Shown here: piece by piece, positions 31,726-51,504 of the stretch
How positions within the stretch are numbered: position 1 is the first letter of the stretch
Layout of the letters: each line of letters starts with the position of its first letter
Assembly: GCA_963676915.2 (NCBI GenBank)
Contig: CAXXVK010000062.1
Location: 72,342-136,341, forward strand
Source: Myxococcota bacterium
GTDB lineage: Bacteria > Myxococcota_A > SURF-8 > G963663525
DNA: 64,000 nt
Direction: 5' to 3'
Program-made: the position numbers and the translations under genes
Notes under the pieces: model-generated
Database searches by the model: none
What the model was told of the DNA's origin: nothing
What the model saw: only the letters and a program-made list of their open reading frames with translations

Positions 31726-34444
31726 ATGGCAACACCGATCCAAGATTCCTTTCATACCCTGACGCCGCTTTCCACCTCGGAAGGCACGCACCACTTTTTC
31801 AACCTGCAACGCCTGACCGAAGAAGGTTTGGGCGATGTCGACCGCTTTCCGTACTCGATCAAAGTCCTGGTCGAATCCGTTCTTCGTGGCGAAAACGGCA
31901 GAGAAATCACCCGTGAGGACGTTGTCCGTATCGCGGCTTACGATCCCGCCGACCCGGGAACGAAGGAAATCCCCTTCAGTCCTGCCCGAGTGCTGTTGCA
32001 GGATTTTACGGGTGTTCCGGCTGTGGTCGATCTGGCCGCCATGCGAAATGCCATGTCTCGTGCCGGTGGCGATCCCCAGCGAATCAATCCCCTCGTACCG
32101 GTTGATCTGGTCATCGACCACTCGGTCCAGGTGGATGCCTTTCGCGACCCGTCGGCGATTATCTTCAATCAAAACAAGGAGATGGAGCGCAATCAAGAGC
32201 GCTACCGCTTCCTTCGATGGGGGCAACAGGCATTCGATAATTTCGGCGTGGTGCCGCCGGGCAACGGCATTGTGCATCAGGTCAATCTCGAATATCTCGC
32301 CCGAGTGGTTCGAAAAGAGACGCGAGATACGCAAACGTTGCTGTTCTCGGATTCTCTTGTCGGGACCGACTCCCACACAACGATGATCAACGGTCTGGGC
32401 GTGCTGGGTTGGGGAGTGGGTGGTATCGAAGCCGAAGCGGTAATGCTGGGTCAACCCTACTACATGACTCCGCCAAAAGTCGTCGGATTGCGCCTGTCGG
32501 GACAACTGCCCGAGGGGGCGACCGCTACAGACCTTGTGCTGGCTGTTACCCAGGTCTTGCGTCACCATGGCGTTGTGGGGCAATTCGTCGAATTCTTCGG
32601 ACCGGGACTGAAAAACCTGTCTCTTCCGGATCGGGCAACGCTTGCCAACATGGCGCCGGAATATGGTGCGACGGTAGGCTTTTTCCCGGTGGATGACGAA
32701 ACGCTTCGTTACCTGGAGTTGTCCGGGCGTTCGAAAGAACAGATCGAGATGATTGAAGCCTATACCAAAGCTCAGGGCTTGTTTGCCTCCGACGATCGCC
32801 CCGAACCTATCTACGGGAAACGCTGGACTTCGATCTCGGAAGCGTCGAGCCGTCGTTGGCCGGTCCCAAACGGCCACAGGATCGGATCCCGGTTTCTCGT
32901 CTGCAAAGCGACTGGAAAACGTTGCTGGAAGCGCCGCAAGGAAAACGGGGATTCGAGCTTGGCAAGGAAGATCTGGGACGAGAAGCGAATGTTGTGTGGG
33001 AGGATGGTCAGGAGGAGACGGTCCGCCACGGTTCGGTGGTGATTGCCGCGATTACGAGTTGCACGAACACAAGCAACCCTTCGGTGATGATCGCCGCCGG
33101 TCTTGTCGCGAAAAAGGCAGTGGAGCGCGGGTTGACGGTTCGTAAGCATGTCAAAACAAGTCTCGCGCCGGGTTCGAAAGTCGTGACCGAATACCTGAAC
33201 CGAAGCGGCCTGACATCCTACCTCGACACGTTAGGGTTCAATCTCGTTGGATATGGCTGCACGACCTGTATCGGCAACAGCGGACCGCTGCCCGAACCGG
33301 TAACCAAAGCCATTCGGGACGGTGAACTTGTGGCGGCGAGCGTGCTTTCGGGCAATCGCAATTTCGAAGGTCGAGTGCATCAGCATGTCAAGGCCAACTT
33401 CCTGGCTTCTCCTCCGCTCGTGGTGGCTTATGCACTGGCGGGAACGGTGGATCTCGACCTCTCGACGCAGCCTATCGGCAAAGATCGCGACGGCTCGCCC
33501 GTGTACCTGAAAGACCTCTGGCCCTCCAATGAAGAGATCCGGGCTGTTGTTGCGGACGCGCTTCGTCCCGAGCTTTTCCTTAGTGAATACAAGAACATAG
33601 AAGAAGGAAACGCCGAGTGGAACGGCATTGCCGTCGAAAGCGGCAACCTCTACCCTTGGGATGTGGAGAGCACCTACATTCGGGAGCCTCCGTTTTTTGC
33701 GACCTTTCGAGCAAGGAACCGGGCTTGTCTTCCATCGAAAACGCCCGGTTGCTGGTGGCTGTCGGGGACAGCACGACGACCGACCACATCAGCCCGGCCG
33801 GTGCGATCAAGGCCGATAGCCCCGCTGGAAAATATCTGGTGGAGAAAGGGATTTTTCAAGAGAATTTCAACTCTTACGGAAGTCGTAGAGGGAATGATGA
33901 AGTCATGACGCGGGGGACGTTTGCCAACGTCCGTTTGAAAAACCGATTGGCTCCCGGCACCGAAGGAGGATGGACCACACACTTCCCCACCGGTGAGGTG
34001 GTATCGATCTTCGAAGCGGCTCAACGTTATCGAAAAGAACGCACGTCGCTGCTCGTCATTGCCGGAAAAGATTACGGCATGGGGTCCAGTCGCGATTGGG
34101 CGGCGAAGGGGACGTATCTTCTTGGAATCAAAGCGGTTATCGCGCAATCCTTCGAGAGAATTCACCGCTCCAACCTGGTCGGAATGGGCGTTTTGCCGCT
34201 GGTGTTCGAGGCGGGCGATTCCTTCGAAAGTCTCGGTCTGAAGGGAGACGAACGTTTCCGGCTGGAGGTGCCCGAGACGCTGACGCCGGGGCAGTCTCTT
34301 ACGGTGGAAGCTACGGGAGAGGATGGAATTCCTAAACGATTCCAGGTGGTTTGCCGTCTGGATACCGAAGTTGAAATCGACTATTACCGCAACGGCGGTA
34401 TTCTTCATACGGTGCTGCGGCGAATGATTGCCGAAAGCTGCTGA
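31726..34444 (+). CDS. acnA: aconitate hydratase A, split by two single-base frameshifts (~32817, ~33697)
   Basis: [64 protein letters not shown] across three consecutive ORFs. Confidence 0.95.
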
Positions 34445-36336: not shown

Positions 36337-36873
36337 ATGAAAGATCTAAGTCGATTGTATGTTAATGGTGTAACGCATTTCTTTACCGTTGTTACCGATC
36401 AACGACGCCCGATATTATGTGACGCCCCCTTGCGTAGCAATTTGCGAAATGCTTTGCAAAGAGTTCGAATGAATTACCCATTCGAGATTGTAGCTTGGGT
36501 TTTATTGCCGGATCATCTTCATACCATATGGTCTCTGCCTAAAAACGATCCCGACTATTCTACCCGATGGCGACTGGTGAAAGGAATTGTTTCTCATCAG
36601 ATGAAGAGCCGTTTGGATTTGGACAGATGCCGCTCGCAAAGTCAAATTCGGAAAGGGGAAAGCGGGTTATGGCAGCATCGTTTTTTGGAGCACACCATAA
36701 GGGATGAAAATGATTTCTCCCGTCACTTTGATTACATTCATTTCAATCCAATAAAGCATGGTTTGGATGAAAATCCTGATGAATGGAAATGGTCAACGTA
36801 TCACAGATATTTGAAACATGGTTATTACGGAGAACACCGACAATTGTTTGATTCGAATGTTGATGCTGAATGA
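36337..36873 (+). mobile_element. REP-associated tyrosine transposase (RAYT / TnpA-REP, Y1 HUH)
   Basis: FFTVVT, VLLPDHLHTIW (HUH), LWQHRF-EHTIRD, DYIHFNPIKHG (catalytic Tyr), WKWSTYH; flanked by inverted REPs. Confidence 0.93.
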
Positions 36874-38359: not shown

Positions 38360-39826
38360 CTATTCGTAGAAGCATTGGTAGGTGTAATCCACGCAAGAAT
38401 CCACGACTCCATCGCAATCGTTGTCGTTGGATTCTTTCAGCACGTTCCCCAGTTCGTCGAGGGTATATGTTTTGCAACTGTTCGGCGTTTCGTCGTCGCA
38501 ATCGCTGTCGTTCTGTTCGGTCAACCGATTGCCCTTGTCGTCGTAGGTGTAGGACCGGCAACTCTCATCCGGTGTGCCATCGCAATCGGGGTCAAGGGAA
38601 TAGCTCAACTCGTTGCCCTGAACATCGTATGCGTAGGACGCGCAATTTGCATCCGGCGTGCCATCGCAATCGTCGTCATTGGAATAACTCAGTGGGTTTC
38701 CTGAGTCATTGTACGCAGAATTATTGCAAGTTTCCGGCGTACCGTCGCAATCGCTGTCATGGGAATAGCTCGTCCGGCATCCAAGATCATCGTAGGTGTA
38801 GGTCTTGCAATGGTCGTCCGGCGTGCCATCGCAGTCGCTATCCAACGTCTCCGTCAACTCATTCCCCTGGTCGTCGTACGTGTTGGTGTAACATGAATCC
38901 GGTGTACCGTCGCAATCGTCGTCAAGCTGTTTCGTCAACTCATTCCCCATGTCGTCATAGGTAAAGGTTTGGCAATTGTTCGGTGTCCCGTCGCAGTTGC
39001 TGTCCACCTTTCTCGTCAATTTATTCCCCATGTCGTCGTAGGTATTGGTCAGGCAATTATCCGGTGAGCCGTCGCAGTCGAAATCATAGAAATCCGTCAG
39101 CATGTTCCCCTGATCGTCGAACGTTTTAGTATCGCACAAACGATCCGGGGTGCCGTCGCAATCGTTGTCTGTTTGTGTCGTCAATTGATTCCCCAAGGTG
39201 TTGTACGTATTGGTTACGCAACCTATATCGAAGGTGCCATCGCAATCGCTGTCCTGTTTAATTGTCAATTGGTTTCCTTGAGTGTCGTACGTATACGTGT
39301 AGCAATTTCTATCCGGCACGCCATCGCCATCGACATCCAATTGAACGGTCAGTATGTTCCCATTGTCATCGTAGGTAAAGGAATGACAAACATCCGTCAC
39401 TCCGTCGCAATCGTTGTCAACTTCCGCGGTCAGTTTATTGCCATTTTCATCGTAGGAAAGACTTTGGCAAGTTTCCGGCGTTCCGTCGCATTCCACATCC
39501 GAACCGCTTGTCAGTATCAAACAGTACTGCTCCGGCACACTTTCCTCTTCTGCCTCGGCAACGTCTTCCTCGGTTTCTTCCTCATCGCCATCGGCAAGGT
39601 CTTCTTCGGCATCGACGAGATCTTCCTCTGCCTCCACGATGTCTTCCTCGGTTGTCGTATCGCCATCAGCAAGAACTTCTTCCCATGCGTCATCCTCGAC
39701 CTCATCGATATCGGCCTCTGGGTTCTCCTGCGTGTTGTTTTTGTCGTCGCTGCATCCGATATTCAATCCCAGACACAGAACCAAGACGAGTACGAATGTA
39801 CTACCAAGAATAACCTTCCGTTTCAT
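38360..39826 (-). CDS. lipoprotein with 13 tandem Cys-containing YD-like repeats
   Basis: Lipobox NIGC, Asp/Glu-rich linker, repeat C-x-T-x-T-Y-D-x-x-G-N-x-L-T-x3-D-x-D-C-D-G-T-P-D. Confidence 0.85.
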   Translation of the reverse strand: MKRKVILGSTFVLVLVLCLGLNIGCSDDKNNTQENPEADIDEVEDDAWEEVLADGDTTTEEDIVEAEEDLVDAEEDLADGDEEETEEDVAEAEEESVPEQYCLILTSGSDVECDGTPETCQSLSYDENGNKLTAEVDNDCDGVTDVCHSFTYDDNGNILTVQLDVDGDGVPDRNCYTYTYDTQGNQLTIKQDSDCDGTFDIGCVTNTYNTLGNQLTTQTDNDCDGTPDRLCDTKTFDDQGNMLTDFYDFDCDGSPDNCLTNTYDDMGNKLTRKVDSNCDGTPNNCQTFTYDDMGNELTKQLDDDCDGTPDSCYTNTYDDQGNELTETLDSDCDGTPDDHCKTYTYDDLGCRTSYSHDSDCDGTPETCNNSAYNDSGNPLSYSNDDDCDGTPDANCASYAYDVQGNELSYSLDPDCDGTPDESCRSYTYDDKGNRLTEQNDSDCDDETPNSCKTYTLDELGNVLKESNDNDCDGVVDSCVDYTYQCFYE

Positions 39827-47109: not shown

Positions 47110-48953
47110 TGGCTCCCTCAAGGAGCCAGGAGATGGGGACTTCCGCAGACGGCGGTTGGCGAACTTCGTTCGTTCGTCGAAATATCCCTTATTTTATTGC
47201 CTTTATTGTCGTTTTTATCGTTCATTTTCCACAGCTTACCGGCTGGTTCCAAATGGACGATTTTTTCCACTACCATCACCTCGAAAGACAACAGTCCGCC
47301 TGGGAATTCTGGACAACCCCCGCCAAGGAACTGGATCGCTTCTGGTTCGCCGCGCCGGACGCCGTCAATCGGCCTTCGATGGATTACGTACTCTATCTTC
47401 GTCCTTTGCCGACCCTATGGCACAAACTGGACTTGGCTTTATTTGGTGACTGGGCATTGGCTCCACATGCTGAAAATCTGTTGCTGCATCTGCTCAATGT
47501 GCTTTTGTTTTTGGGATTGCTGAGACGGCTGGCCTTTCCCGGTGCGCTCCCCATAGCTTTGGCTTTTGGAGTCAGTCCGCTGGCTGTAGAACCCGTGGGA
47601 TGGATCAGTTCCCGTAACGACCTGCTGGTAACCTGTTGTATGATCGTTTCGGGCTGGGGATTCTTCTTTTTCCACAGATCAGAGGAAAACAAAAATAAAT
47701 TCAAAAAGATAGCGGTAGCGTTCGTTCTTGTTGTCGCCTTGTGGGCGGGATTGCTGTCCAAAGAATCGGCAGCCATGGGTATCGCCTCGGCATTGCTTCT
47801 CGGTTTGATTCAGAAAAAACGCGACTTCTTCAAACAGCTCTGGCCTTACTTGTTGGTGGCGGGAACTCTTTCCTGGGCGGCCTATTGGGCAAGCGTTCAC
47901 CCGGACAATACCGTTTCCATGAGCAAAACCAATTGGTTCTTGTTTTGGCAAAAAGGCCCATGTTGCGTTTTGAGCTTTCAGTTTGTTTCCTCTCTGTTTT
48001 CCATGATGACCGGTCTGGCACCTCCTTCTTTCATGCACGCCGATCTTTCATCATGCGCCGGAACGATTGCTCTGGCCGTCATTTTGTTTGTATTTTTAAG
48101 CCTTTGCGTTTTTCGTATTCGTTCTCGGTATATGATCTTCTCGGCCATCGTGCTGGGATTGTTTCTTTTGCCGATGCTCGCCATACATTCCGCTCCACGC
48201 TACCTGTATTTCTGTTTACCCGCATTTTTCGCGTTTACGGGTTCCTGGGTATGGCAAAGATACAAAAGGCGGAGACTGGCACAGACGCTGTTTGTGGTCA
48301 TGATTGTGTTCTGGTGTTTCACAAGCCACATTTTGAGCCGCCACAATGCGCAAGGTTCTCGCTGGATTCACAACGACCTGAATTCGGTCCGGGAAGCCGT
48401 CGCCGGAGAAAATGTCGAGCGCCTGTACCTGATCGACTGGTGGCCGATTGCCATCAACAGCGAGCTATGGTTGAATAAAATCATCGGGCAACCCGAAGCC
48501 AAAATTCGCCTGCTAAGTACCTCGCCAAGCGTTCATCGTCCCGAGTTGGACACGTTTGGATTGTGGGTGGCGTGGCTCTGGAGCTACCCTTTGGGGTTAC
48601 CCTACGACGAAAAACGCTACAATTGCCTAACGATTCGAGATCGTTCGATTTTCGAAAGCCGAACTGTCCCGAAAAACGCATCGCTGGCGGCTCTTTTCGA
48701 TGCCGAATCCCTCTGTGAATATTGGAAAAGCAACAAAGTCGTTCGCGCTCCCGATGTAACTGTGGAGTTCCGTGGCGAAAGTTCCGGTTGTCCGAACCGA
48801 ATGAATTTCATCCTGCCCACCAACATCGACGCTCCTGGCACCTTTGTTTTACGACGTACGCCCGAAGGGTTCCGGAGAATTCAGCAGAATAAAGACGGTT
48901 CGTGGGAGATCTTCAACCCGCCGATTTGCTCGCAACCTTCGGACAAACCCTGA
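47109..48953 (+). CDS. GT-C type (TMTC/ArnT-like) membrane glycosyltransferase
   Basis: Early DD motif (QMDDFF), YLRPL, HLLNVLL, EPVGWISSRNDLL, LLSKESA, RYLYF; many TM helices. Confidence 0.7.
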   Translation: MAPSRSQEMGTSADGGWRTSFVRRNIPYFIAFIVVFIVHFPQLTGWFQMDDFFHYHHLERQQSAWEFWTTPAKELDRFWFAAPDAVNRPSMDYVLYLRPLPTLWHKLDLALFGDWALAPHAENLLLHLLNVLLFLGLLRRLAFPGALPIALAFGVSPLAVEPVGWISSRNDLLVTCCMIVSGWGFFFFHRSEENKNKFKKIAVAFVLVVALWAGLLSKESAAMGIASALLLGLIQKKRDFFKQLWPYLLVAGTLSWAAYWASVHPDNTVSMSKTNWFLFWQKGPCCVLSFQFVSSLFSMMTGLAPPSFMHADLSSCAGTIALAVILFVFLSLCVFRIRSRYMIFSAIVLGLFLLPMLAIHSAPRYLYFCLPAFFAFTGSWVWQRYKRRRLAQTLFVVMIVFWCFTSHILSRHNAQGSRWIHNDLNSVREAVAGENVERLYLIDWWPIAINSELWLNKIIGQPEAKIRLLSTSPSVHRPELDTFGLWVAWLWSYPLGLPYDEKRYNCLTIRDRSIFESRTVPKNASLAALFDAESLCEYWKSNKVVRAPDVTVEFRGESSGCPNRMNFILPTNIDAPGTFVLRRTPEGFRRIQQNKDGSWEIFNPPICSQPSDKP

Positions 48954-49326
48954 CCGTTAGCCCGCATACTTCATGAGGATCGTAGCGAGACGCCGAAAAC
49001 CGAAGAACTTTAATGAAGTTGGAGTGATTTTTTAACGGAAGCATACTTTACAGTATGTTGAGTATAAAAAATCGGGAAACGAATGAAAGATCAAGAGTTT
49101 TCAAGTCGTAGGTGATTCTTCATGAATTATGCGGGTTAGGTATTCTTACAATGTAAACAATTCAAACCTGTGGAAAGAATTCAGACCTGCATTCATTCAA
49201 GTGTGACAATATTGTCCGGTTTTTACGATTTTATCCCGATTCCCTGGCAGTCCCAAACGGGTTCTAATTCTCCTAACCTATTGTTTTTCTATACGAATCT
49301 CCACAAAGGACAAAACTCAAAGAGTT

Positions 49327-49342
49327 TGGCACACCGTTTGCT
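49327..49342 (+). promoter_or_regulatory. sigma-54 (-24/-12) promoter
   Basis: TGGCAC-ACCGT-TTGCT matches the TGGCAC-N5-TTGCW consensus exactly. Confidence 0.8.
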
Positions 49343-49352
49343 TTATTTTAAG

Positions 49353-49524
49353 GGTGAACCTGCTGAGCAACCGGCGGGAGCGGTTCTTTCCTTTGGGATC
49401 GTTTGCGACTACGGAGGTTCTTGGCCCTATCTCCGTAGTGTTTTGGCCTTTCCGGAATGCACCCTTCTTCACTTCCCTCCCCTGGTTCAAGCAGTTCAGC
49501 CCCGGCATAAGCCGGGGTTTTTTT
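49353..49524 (+). ncRNA. putative sigma-54-dependent structured small RNA
   Basis: Starts at the predicted +1; 49353-49383 pairs with 49475-49501; inner 9-bp stem ACTACGGAG/CTCCGTAGT; ends in a terminator. Confidence 0.7.
49500..49524 (+). terminator. intrinsic terminator of the putative sRNA
   Basis: CCCCGGC-ATAA-GCCGGGG followed by 7 T. Confidence 0.88.
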
Positions 49525-49689
49525 ATGGGTATCAATGTTTCGTTTTCGCAAAATGTGGGTTTATTACACAATTATTTCCAACCCATGCGCAAGAAATCCG
49601 ATTTTTGCCTATCGGCTTTCTCCGAGGCATGCTATCTTTTAACTTGGATAATTTACATGTACCCTATCTCTGTTTGTCAGGTTCTATAT

Positions 49690-51504
49690 ATGCCGAATCT
49701 ATTGAAATTTACTACACTTTTCCTGCTTCTTTCGTCGCTCTCCGTTGCGTGTTCCACGAAACCGACCTGGGTTCTCGATCGTCAGGTGCCGGTTGAAAAC
49801 GATGCCCTCGACCAATCGCTCTGGCAGGAAATCGACAGCCTCTACAGCGAGTGGACGAAAAAAGAAGGACATCCCAAAAACGTTCCGACGCCTGACCCCG
49901 TTTTGAATCAAGCCGCCAAACAGCTTGCCGAGCTTGGGTTGGTCACCGATGGCGAAAGCCCCAACCGTTACGCCGCTCGTATTCTGGCCGATGCTGGAGA
50001 ATATGCCCTGCCCTTCCACGCGGCATGGTTCAAAAGTTCGGATGAGCACGAGCTTGCTCAAAAAATCATGCCAAGGCTTTTGACCCTGGAGCAAAACGGT
50101 TACCGGTTTTGGGGGGTTGCAACCGCCCGAAACGACAAGGAAATCATCGTTGCTTTACTGACGATCCGACGGGATGTCGCGTTCGATCATCCCCTGCCGT
50201 CCTGGATTCAAGCGAATCAGCCGTTTCACCTTTCGGGAACCGTCACCGACGATATCGGCCGCCTTCAGTTCGTAGTTCTCGCTCCTGATGGAACGATTCG
50301 CAAACGTTTCGTTCCCTATCTCGGAGGTCGTTTTTCCCTCGATGTAACTCTTTCAAAGAAGGGTTGGTATTACCTGCAATTCGACATTGGCGAGGAAAAT
50401 CACGGGCGGCGCAACGCTTCTATCGTGCCGTTGTACGTTGGGGATTCGAAGCCGGACGACATTAAAATCGCTACTGCGATGTCGGTTCAATCCAAGGACT
50501 TCGCCAAAGCGATGCATGTCAATATTTCCATATGGAATCAATGGCTTCCGGAAGGTCCCCCCCGCCGACTACCCCAAGCGGAACGTTTTCTGGCCGAACA
50601 GGCTCAACGAGAAGCCCAACAGCTTTCCCCCGGACAAAGCGGCTTTTATCGTCATGTTTCCTATGGATCGAATCGTAACAGCCAGATTGACTGCTCGATC
50701 CTGTCCCAGTGGACCGATGACCTCGGCTTTCTGGTACAAGCCAATTCCGTAAGTCCAACCTACCGATTTTGGAGTACGGGACGAACCGCCAATGCCTACG
50801 AAGCCTACAGTGTTCCGAGTCGGGGAGGCTATCGGGTGCTTGAAATCGTCTGTGGCGAGAAGCGACCCAACCTGTTCGATATCGGTCTACGTCTCCCCAT
50901 GGACCGTCTTGGATCTTTGTTGGAACTGGAAGACGAGGAGTTCGAAGCGTCCGTAGGAGTCACTTGGAACGAACCCAAAGAACGCAAGCGAGAAGACTGG
51001 ATCGTGCTGGCAGCGTTGGAAGTTTATGAAAAATCGGGGGATTTCATCGAATACCTGCAAAGCTTCGCCAAATTGGGAAAAGAAGATCAGGTAGAACTGG
51101 CCAAACGGCTGGAGTCTCCCGTTTCCCGTCAGGTGGATAATCTCTTGAGCGTCGCCTTGAAAAAGCACGGTACGAAGGAATCCGATGAAGGAGCCATTCG
51201 CTCGTTGTTGTTCAAAACGTTGTTGGTCGCCGGACGTTTGCCAGAGGCCAGAGAAGAACTGGAGCGCTGGCAAAAAGATAACCTCGTCCAGACCGCGAAC
51301 GGTTCTGCACGTTTGGAACTGGCACGTGGCTGGCTGGCGATTGCCTCGGGAAATTCCGAGGATGCCTTGATCCATTTACAACACGCTCGAATGAAATTCC
51401 GACAGCTTCGTTTCGATCTGACCGAAGAGCAAATCCGTCGCCAAATCCGGGATTTAGTGAAAGATCAAGGGTTTCCACCACCTCCCGCAACGGTTTGGGA
51501 TTGA
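49690..51504 (+). CDS. lipoprotein of unknown function with C-terminal TPR-like helices
   Basis: ATG at 49690 gives the signal MPNLLKFTTLFLLLSSLSVAC. Confidence 0.7.
   Translation: MPNLLKFTTLFLLLSSLSVACSTKPTWVLDRQVPVENDALDQSLWQEIDSLYSEWTKKEGHPKNVPTPDPVLNQAAKQLAELGLVTDGESPNRYAARILADAGEYALPFHAAWFKSSDEHELAQKIMPRLLTLEQNGYRFWGVATARNDKEIIVALLTIRRDVAFDHPLPSWIQANQPFHLSGTVTDDIGRLQFVVLAPDGTIRKRFVPYLGGRFSLDVTLSKKGWYYLQFDIGEENHGRRNASIVPLYVGDSKPDDIKIATAMSVQSKDFAKAMHVNISIWNQWLPEGPPRRLPQAERFLAEQAQREAQQLSPGQSGFYRHVSYGSNRNSQIDCSILSQWTDDLGFLVQANSVSPTYRFWSTGRTANAYEAYSVPSRGGYRVLEIVCGEKRPNLFDIGLRLPMDRLGSLLELEDEEFEASVGVTWNEPKERKREDWIVLAALEVYEKSGDFIEYLQSFAKLGKEDQVELAKRLESPVSRQVDNLLSVALKKHGTKESDEGAIRSLLFKTLLVAGRLPEAREELERWQKDNLVQTANGSARLELARGWLAIASGNSEDALIHLQHARMKFRQLRFDLTEEQIRRQIRDLVKDQGFPPPPATVWD

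Follow-up and report, generated by a model that had tools for sequence, protein, structure and literature searches.

A 64,000-nt stretch of DNA from a Myxococcota bacterium (assembly GCA_963676915.2, contig CAXXVK010000062.1, positions 72,342 to 136,341 of the forward strand), referred to here as the window, appears to contain at positions 49327–49524 a real and previously uncatalogued gene for a folded non-coding RNA, which would have its own enhancer site, promoter and terminator and occurs in a small group of uncultured Myxococcota. A first-pass annotation made from the letters of the window had proposed that a new structured RNA of about 170 nt is made here under sigma-54 control, and this proposal gains support from a promoter present in all six homologs, an upstream palindrome, covarying helices, the presence of rpoN and 22 activator domains in the genome, and the lack of a fitting Rfam family. 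On a single sequence, promoter match and fold are weak evidence, hardly above chance; the feature rises above chance because it is conserved among relatives. The genome to which the window belongs (G000; 74 contigs, 5.18 Mb, 90.8% complete, with the window on contig C62) is one of ten genomes in total (G000–G009) of a class that here coincides with its order.

Conservation and folding of the RNA

BLAST and covariance-model searches identified the RNA in six of the ten genomes of the class (G000, G001, G004, G005, G007 and G009), with one copy in each. These genomes belong to two families and effectively represent few independent lineages. The homolog in G001, the only other species of the genus of G000, was found by BLAST (86% over 198 nt). 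A covariance model built from these two sequences led to G007, a member of another family of the same order, at 48.8 bits, and a three-sequence model led to G004 (54.4 bits) and G009 (23.9 bits). With a five-sequence model, the latter two reached 94.9 and 79.7 bits, respectively, and G005 was added at 20.3 bits. All models were built from the RNA region alone and left promoter, palindrome and neighbouring genes outside, so that the upstream promoter and palindrome provided an independent test of weak matches.

The covariance models did not find the RNA in G002 (95% complete), G003 (93%), G006 (86%) and G008 (79%), and among 141 sampled genomes from the rest of the phylum a model termed R3 gave no credible match. 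The only matches in this sample (G055, G097 and G036, E 0.02–0.05) were about as many as chance would yield and had neither promoter nor palindrome. Other candidates were rejected as well: a match on contig C78 of G002 (16.5 bits) lies in GC-rich coding-like DNA with no correctly spaced promoter, and short matches in G005 as well as one in G146 were driven by the terminator. The same applied to G000:C43:105917-105999 (L043, minus strand), which had been considered as a further copy and scored 25.2 bits with the first model. This locus shows a short stem and a strong terminator (GGUUCAACCCCGCC...GGCGGGGUUUUUUU) like those at the 3' end of the RNA, and it may be another small RNA or just a similar terminator. 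An exact-pattern scan for the conserved blocks GGGAGCGG..TC..GGGATCGTTTG returned three loci from genome contigs (G007, one Rhizomicrobium and one Planctomycetota) and two from metagenome contigs. All four foreign loci failed the covariance model and were therefore treated as chance matches.

The predicted transcript of about 172 nt spans 49353..49524 on the plus strand, on which the parts of the RNA described below are also located; its start is derived from the -12 element and its end from the T-run of the terminator. The fold of 49353–49528 has a minimum free energy (MFE) of -70.7 kcal/mol, compared with a mean of -56.6 (sd 4.1) for shuffled sequences (z = -3.43), and one of 200 shuffles folds as stably. 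The long closing helix described in the first-pass annotation is present in this MFE fold with all of the helices named there. Its 5' strand (49355..49383) comprises P1 (UGAAC, UGCU) and P2 (AACCGG, GGGAG, GG) and has its partner at 49475–49498. The rod is composed of the helices UGAAC/GUUCA (49355–59 with 49494–98), UGCU/AGCA and AACCGG/CUGGUU, followed by the inner helices GGGAG/CUCCC (49376–80 with 49477–81) and then GG/CC.

The rod leads into a bubble with strands of 11 and 10 nt that are unable to pair, and this combination of rod and bubble recurs in 6/6 homologs. Two pyrimidine-rich segments had been pointed out before, and both are present. The first (TTCTTTCCTTT at 49384–94) coincides with loop A, the 5' strand of the bubble (UUCUUUCCUUU, 49384..49394), which is unpaired in the MFE structure and keeps YUCUUU in five of the six homologs. 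The second (CCCTTCTTCACTTCCCTCCCC, 49462..49482) includes loop B, the 3' strand of the bubble (UUCUUCACUU, 49465..49474), likewise unpaired in the MFE structure and flanked by CCC of helix P3 and CC/CUCCC of P2. For loop B, the probability of being unpaired is at least 0.9 throughout in G000, G001, G007, G004 and G005 and is lower in G009. A CU-rich tract is found at this position in all six homologs, and C and U together make up 55–59% of the homologous RNAs.

Between the bubble and a junction bearing two hairpins lies the 3-bp helix P3 (GGG/CCC). In the MFE fold, the first hairpin, P5 (49408..49439), has 11 pairs and a 10-nt apical loop with UGGCC, a motif present in five of six homologs, G005 having diverged there. 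Nine of these are Watson-Crick pairs (ACUACGGAG at 49408–16 with CUCCGUAGU at 49431–39) and correspond to the perfect 9-bp hairpin noticed at first; one G-U and one U-A pair are added to them. The second hairpin of the MFE fold, P6 (49440..49458; GUUUUGG/CCGGAAU), carries GGCCUU in its loop. The GC-rich terminator with seven T that had been reported to follow immediately was located at 49498..49524, with a stem of nine pairs (7 GC) at 49498–49519, the loop AUAA and the seven T at 49518–24.

Comparison of G000 with G001 suggests that selection has acted on the RNA, the promoter and the palindrome and not on the DNA between them. Identity amounts to 89% in the RNA (153/172) and 81% in the promoter (13/16), as compared with 42% in the spacer 49250–49326, 33% in the segment from -12 to +1 and 49% in the intergenic DNA downstream of the terminator. 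For a closer relative, represented by contigs of two runs from another study, one piece covering 49351–49501 had no differences, and the neighbouring pieces differed at 12 of 151, 14 of 148 and 17 of 314 positions. Among the differences listed for this relative, to which 48 unlisted ones have to be added, none falls between 49316 and 49539.

Conservation of the structure in relatives was seen in three alignments of the homologs. Alignment A4 (five sequences) has 95.5% of its 201 cells paired (38–54% when slid) and 16 of 50 pairs changed on both sides; alignment A6 (six sequences) has 93.9% of its 214 cells paired (43–56% when slid) and 17 of 44 pairs changed on both sides. In each case, 0 of 500 shuffles did as well. 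Both alignments are fitted to the model and biased toward the modelled structure, the shuffle control overstates significance when sequences are related, and significance for single pairs would need more than six sequences. Changes on both sides in A6 affected 7 of 11 pairs in helices 1 and 2 (P1 and outer P2) and 6 of 10 pairs in helix 6 (P5); helix 7 (P6) was paired in 100% of cells, with two of its seven pairs changed on both sides. MAFFT and RNAalifold, applied to the six RNAs and not fitted to the model, recovered the P2 rod and P5, with compensatory changes in 11 of 31 pairs. No covariation is seen in the inner GGGAG/CUCCC, in GGGAUCGUUUG, in the apical UGGCC or in GGCCUU, all of which are conserved in sequence. 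When the opposite strand is considered, 25 G-U cells turn into mismatches, and pairing there is 82.2% versus 93.9%. As the G-U cells favour one strand, the RNA is therefore read from the strand of the promoter. Gene unit, conservation, structure and strand have been established computationally.

The RNA was also compared with known families. A permissive scan with Rfam 15 (4227 models, E up to 10) of window positions 48000–51000 gave seven matches, all under the gathering threshold and driven by the terminator. The best of them, anti-hemB, reached 24.9 bits with a threshold of 49.5, and its alignment was mainly to the terminator. At four other homolog loci, nothing was found at the RNA, and one unrelated sub-threshold match lay elsewhere in a locus; none of these scans gave a riboswitch family at the RNA loci. 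With no family at or above threshold, the covariance models of Rfam agree with the novelty first proposed. Full-text literature searches on sigma-54 small RNAs of Myxococcota and on Pxr did not find a description of this RNA. It would thus appear to be a new RNA family absent from Rfam, adding to the uncatalogued RNA families lacking there.

Promoter, upstream palindrome and activator genes

The -24/-12 consensus had been described as exact, with +1 near 49353, and this reading was reproduced. TGGCAC-N5-TTGCW is found at 49327–49342 on the plus strand and reads as a sigma-54 promoter with the -24 element TGGCAC (GG at 49328–29) and the -12 element TTGCT at 49338–49342 (GC at 49340–41); taking the C at 49341 as -12 places +1 at 49353. 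The promoter of G000 (TGGCAC-ACCGT-TTGC) has counterparts in G001 (TGGCAT-ATCTT-TTGC), G007 (TGGCGC-GACCT-TTGC), G004 (TGGCAT-CACCC-TTGC), G005 (TGGCAC-CCCGC-TTGC) and G009 (TGGCAT-CCCTC-TTGC). TGGC-N7-TTGC is accordingly present in all six homologs, with its GC 35–39 nt 5' of the invariant GGGAG (alignment A5).

An enhancer-like palindrome at about -142 has to be added to the features noticed at first. This putative upstream activating sequence (GACAATATTGTC, 49205..49216, without strand) is centred 142.5 nt 5' of the predicted start, and the conserved block around it spans about 49200–49224 (GTGTGACAATATTGTCCGGTTTTT). The same 12-mer is found in G001 (centre at -142.5 from +1) and G007 (-141.5), and related forms are found in G004 (GACAATTCTGTC, -144.5), G005 (GACAAAAATGCC, -145.5) and G009 (GACATTCTCGTC, -131.5). 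A GACA-N4-TGTC-like palindrome centred between -131.5 and -145.5 is thus common to the six homologs, the one of G009 lying about one helical turn nearer to the promoter than in the others. Directly 3' of it, each genome has CGG, with CTG instead in G007. The exact 12-mer has one copy each in G000, G001 and G007, always at the RNA locus, and a whole-genome count gave no copy in G003, G004 and G005. Enhancer-binding activators typically bind at such a distance from sigma-54 promoters, and the palindrome is probably the binding site of one.

The sigma-54 machinery is encoded in G000. An rpoN DNA-binding domain was found at C72:203413-203889 (218.7 bits), and Sigma54_activat domains number 22 in this genome and 27–29 in each of four other genomes searched. 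No activator gene was found between 29.8 and 64 kb of the window. Among the six genomes with the RNA, one has an activator gene adjoining it (G004, downstream) and none has such a gene upstream. The activator of G004 (L062 5634-7262; G004:C2:1529633-1531258) has 542 aa; its gene follows that of the RNA on the same strand at a distance of about 750 nt. It is composed of an unassigned N-terminal part of 215 aa, an AAA+ domain and HTH_8. As a regulator of the RNA it is kept as a lead only: none of the nine remaining genomes of the class has a relative above 49% identity, and G004 itself has a paralog. Regulation of the RNA by this protein may be specific to the lineage, or the two genes may be neighbours by coincidence.

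The relaxed motif TGGCAY-N5-TTGC has 24 matches in G000, with 20.8 expected from the base composition of the genome. Despite these counts, the relaxed motif is meaningful in G000, being mostly intergenic: 17 of the 24 matches lie outside called open reading frames (ORFs), though ORFs span 85.3% of the genome. Seven of the 24 are part of an unrelated palindromic repeat of about 95 nt and are to be set aside. This repeat, bounded by GGGTGGCACGGTCTT ... AAGACCGTGGCACCC, has seven copies on contigs C1, C10, C24, C27, C64, C68 and C71 of G000, several of which are nested within a larger shared repeat. Its left arm matches TGGCAY-N5-TTGC by chance and inflates the promoter counts.

Proposed mode of action and comparable regulatory RNAs

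With slightly better than even confidence, the locus can be interpreted as a gene standing by itself that encodes a small regulatory RNA (sRNA) of about 170 nt acting in trans; this sRNA would be activated through an enhancer and sigma-54 and would use its CU-rich loops to pair with purine-rich sites in mRNAs. A bacterial enhancer-binding protein would bind the GACA-N4-TGTC palindrome about 142 bp upstream and, in response to a signal, turn on sigma-54 RNA polymerase at the -24/-12 promoter. Transcription would begin near 49353 and end at the terminator 49498–49524. The RNA would fold into a closing rod of about 20 bp, a bubble with both strands pyrimidine-rich, and a distal part that branches into two hairpins. 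Pairing with purine-rich (Shine-Dalgarno-like) mRNA sequences would most likely be made by the exposed CU-rich strands, aided by the conserved apical loop, and would change translation or stability of the mRNA without Hfq. The features described above lead us to infer an activator, both ends of the transcript and everything concerning the way in which the RNA acts.

Base pairing is favoured because loop B is accessible and CU-rich, because Hfq was not found in G000 (90.8% complete), and because sRNAs of bacteria lacking Hfq (e.g., RsaE and RepG) typically cover purine-rich ribosome-binding sites with C/U-rich loops. An anti-Shine-Dalgarno sRNA had been one of the two options given in the first-pass annotation; the accessible CU-rich loops fit it, and the part concerning targets found no robust counterpart in the target scan. 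The 3' tail of the 16S rRNA was not found in the G000 assembly, so that the organism's own anti-Shine-Dalgarno sequence cannot be read from it.

Several points speak against a base-pairing sRNA of this kind. When loops were scanned against 4011 predicted translation-start regions of G000 (crude gene calls, ten shuffled seeds per loop), loops B and C paired no better than the shuffled seeds. Loop A gave an outlier in a ParA-like ATPase gene (C67:105926-106705), with -31.6 kcal/mol versus -28.5 for the best control; this gene was rejected as a target, as the pairing in G001 was -16.1 (no better than shuffles) and was not kept in G004, G005, G007 and G009. The strict promoter motif occurs six times in the 5.18 Mb of G000, where 5.2 occurrences are expected, and is not above chance. 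Start, end and sigma-54 dependence are predictions from the sequence. No activator gene is adjacent to the RNA in five of the six genomes, and the conserved activator site is a single one, while two or three are used by many activators. The terminator is kept in G001; as a separate hairpin it is weak in G005 and G007 and absent in G004 and G009, which have a long P2 helix and then a short U-run in its place. The comparison comprises six sequences from two families, hence few lineages, and alignments derived from covariance models lean to the model. Finally, the invariant GGGAG/CUCCC and GGGAUCGUUUG would suit recognition by a protein as well as pairing.

The last point is of importance for an alternative which leaves the gene unit the same and takes the RNA as a decoy or scaffold that binds a protein, such as RNA polymerase holoenzyme, CsrA or another RNA-binding protein. 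Its partner would recognise the invariant GGGAG/CUCCC helix together with the pyrimidine bubble. Overall, this alternative seems rather unlikely. It agrees with the rod and its non-pairing 11/10-nt bubble in all six homologs, with the sequence-conserved blocks of inner P2, GGGAUCGUUUG, UGGCC and GGCCUU that lack covariation, and with the absence of a robust mRNA target in the scan. CsrA is encoded in G000, and GGA motifs are in modest excess, with 3–5 per homolog versus 1.3–2.0 expected. However, the four GGA of G000 have a low probability of being unpaired and are situated in predicted stems, not in loops, and CsrB and RsmZ carry far more GGA motifs than the RNA described here. A CsrA sponge of the CsrB/RsmZ type was rejected on these grounds.

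A rod-with-bubble decoy reminiscent of 6S RNA had been the second option of the first-pass annotation. Its shape was confirmed in the six homologs, and the RNA is like 6S RNA (RF00013) in its length of about 170–180 nt, its long closing helix and its large internal bubble; it differs in the branched distal part and in having both bubble strands CU-rich. Membership in the 6S family fails because the Rfam 6S model had no match at the RNA locus at E up to 10 and the canonical 6S RNA of G000, its only 6S match (C72:234290-234465, 61.3 bits), is on another contig. In a more specific form, the decoy would be made under sigma-54 control, and its GGGAG/CUCCC helix and all-pyrimidine bubble would mimic an opened promoter or a duplex of Shine-Dalgarno and anti-Shine-Dalgarno sequences, thereby holding RNA polymerase holoenzyme, the 30S subunit or another abundant protein. 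This form appears quite improbable. If a decoy were indeed made, it would constitute a second, signal-induced 6S-like system beside canonical 6S RNA.

Returning to the sRNA interpretation, one system for comparison is Pxr, an sRNA of Myxococcota described as having an enhancer-binding region upstream of a predicted sigma-54 promoter (PMC5684412) and as acting in trans as a developmental regulator with targets long unknown (PMC5684412, PMC11928866). It has three stem-loops, lies directly downstream of the NtrC-like regulator gene pxrR and arose within the Cystobacterineae (PMC5684412). As far as these descriptions go, the two RNAs have in common their occurrence in Myxococcota, their small size, and a predicted sigma-54 promoter preceded by an enhancer region. 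They differ in structure (three stem-loops in Pxr versus rod, bubble and branched tip), in the gene immediately upstream (pxrR versus no activator gene at any of the six loci) and in distribution (Cystobacterineae versus only the class studied here), and it is by description that the RNA is set apart from Pxr. As for homology to Pxr, model R3 gave no credible match in the 141 other Myxococcota genomes, among which carriers of pxr were not identified.

Another comparable system is GlmY, for which a sigma-54 promoter and GlrR sites more than 100 bp upstream were described, with inverted repeats having TGTC/GACA half-sites; three TGTC-N10-GACA sites were reported for GlrR, and the sites of IHF were required (PMC3045617). 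Judged from this account, the GlmY/GlmZ-GlrR (QseF) system and the locus described here have in common a sigma-54-driven sRNA gene and a distal inverted-repeat activator site with TGTC/GACA half-sites. The latter has one GACA-N4-TGTC site in place of three TGTC-N10-GACA sites, with reversed order of the half-sites and other spacing, and IHF sites, which are required there, were not identified here. GlmY acts by mimicry involving a protein (RapZ), and Rfam contains models for both GlmY and GlmZ.

Similar regulatory logic is known from Qrr and LuxO of Vibrionaceae, where a short sRNA ending at a terminator is made from a -24/-12 promoter with its own sigma-54 activator site, and the genome has very few other LuxO sites. 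The same logic is seen here, where the palindrome is also unique in the genome (G000, G001 and G007). Qrr RNAs are about 100 nt long, depend on Hfq and occur in several copies, whereas the RNA described here has about 170 nt and a single copy, Hfq was not found in G000, and the RNA has no Rfam match.

To our knowledge, only a few small RNAs depend on sigma-54, and those known (Qrr, GlmY and Pxr) each act where the cell makes a physiological decision. The cassette described here is unusually complete: the putative activator site is unique in the genome, the promoter matches the consensus, the structure covaries and a terminator is present. The class of Myxococcota having this RNA is known only from metagenome-assembled genomes, and the palindrome as a bait for the activator and the RNA as a bait for its partners could provide a handle on one signalling pathway of as yet uncultured organisms. 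The locus is of moderate interest, the cassette being experimentally tractable and its distribution narrow.

Genomic surroundings and neighbouring elements

The next plausible start downstream is the ATG at 49690, about 165 nt past the T-run, in line with the distance given previously. It opens an ORF of 604 aa with a lipoprotein-type signal peptide and no Pfam family. G000 and G001 share this lipoprotein gene downstream and genes for TPR and membrane proteins upstream. In G007, an XRE and M78/ImmA pair is found upstream and an unrelated ORF of 171 aa downstream, which has its own TTGACA/TATGAT-like (sigma-70-like) promoter. Such a pair also lies upstream in G005, where nrdJ (class II ribonucleotide reductase) follows about 1 kb downstream; nrdJ is likewise located about 1 kb downstream in G009, on the same strand. 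In G004, the activator gene mentioned above is followed by dnaA. The pair comprises an XRE-type helix-turn-helix gene overlapping an M78/ImmA-type metalloprotease gene (L041 2054-2993 in G007 and L095 7892-9032 in G005); it directly precedes the RNA in both genomes, and no other upstream synteny is common to different genera.

These surroundings were also considered with regard to a cis-acting 5' leader of the downstream gene, similar to an attenuator or riboswitch, in which the terminator would be a regulated switch. Such a leader might be plausible for the lipoprotein gene of G000 and G001, which is on the same strand with no other plus-strand promoter predicted between, and for nrdJ, which is on the same strand in both G005 and G009. 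However, the downstream gene varies between genera and belongs to no constant family, the post-terminator DNA is just 49% identical between G000 and G001, a conserved alternative antiterminator pairing was not found, and the scans gave no match to a riboswitch family. A leader function is very improbable. The RNA gene rather appears to be independent and non-coding: no ORF is common to the six homologs, and substitutions between G000 and G001 fall on the three codon phases 5, 6 and 6 times and show no periodicity.

Upstream of the gene unit in G000, a repeat resembling a miniature inverted-repeat transposable element (MITE) occupies about 183 nt (window 48957–49139). Its 22-nt terminal inverted repeats (48958–79 and 49117–38) are 86% complementary, and 63 copies of at least 150 nt occur in G000 in both orientations. 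An internal hairpin of the repeat covaries between copies, the whole element folds with z = -3.6, its edges coincide with breaks in the assembly contigs of other runs, and no Rfam match was found for it in the scanned interval. On one side of the repeat is the upstream gene and on the other the palindrome; G001 lacks the repeat here. Its insertion leaves the unit undisturbed, which limits the functional upstream region to about 210 bp at most.

The proximity of this high-copy mobile repeat, together with a frame that is open from 49354 into the downstream gene, would be compatible with a locus that is not an RNA gene at all and is instead a conserved DNA element (a region bound by protein, or what is left of a mobile element) or a short protein gene. 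Against this, the feature has a single copy per genome, compensatory changes keep its helices and G-U pairs mark one strand, and frames, stops and indels differ among the homologs, with no codon periodicity. Moreover, the mobile repeat ends at 49139, before the palindrome. An explanation of this kind is extremely improbable.

Two further observations were made elsewhere in the window. At 31726–33908, an aconitase frame is split into overlapping ORFs of 438 aa (positions 14–277 of the Pfam profile) and 350 aa (292–463), which suggests a frameshift or an assembly error. An IS200/Y1-transposase-like ORF (36337–36873; PF01797, E = 7e-7) was found beside a gene for an RHS-repeat protein on the opposite strand (38360–39826).

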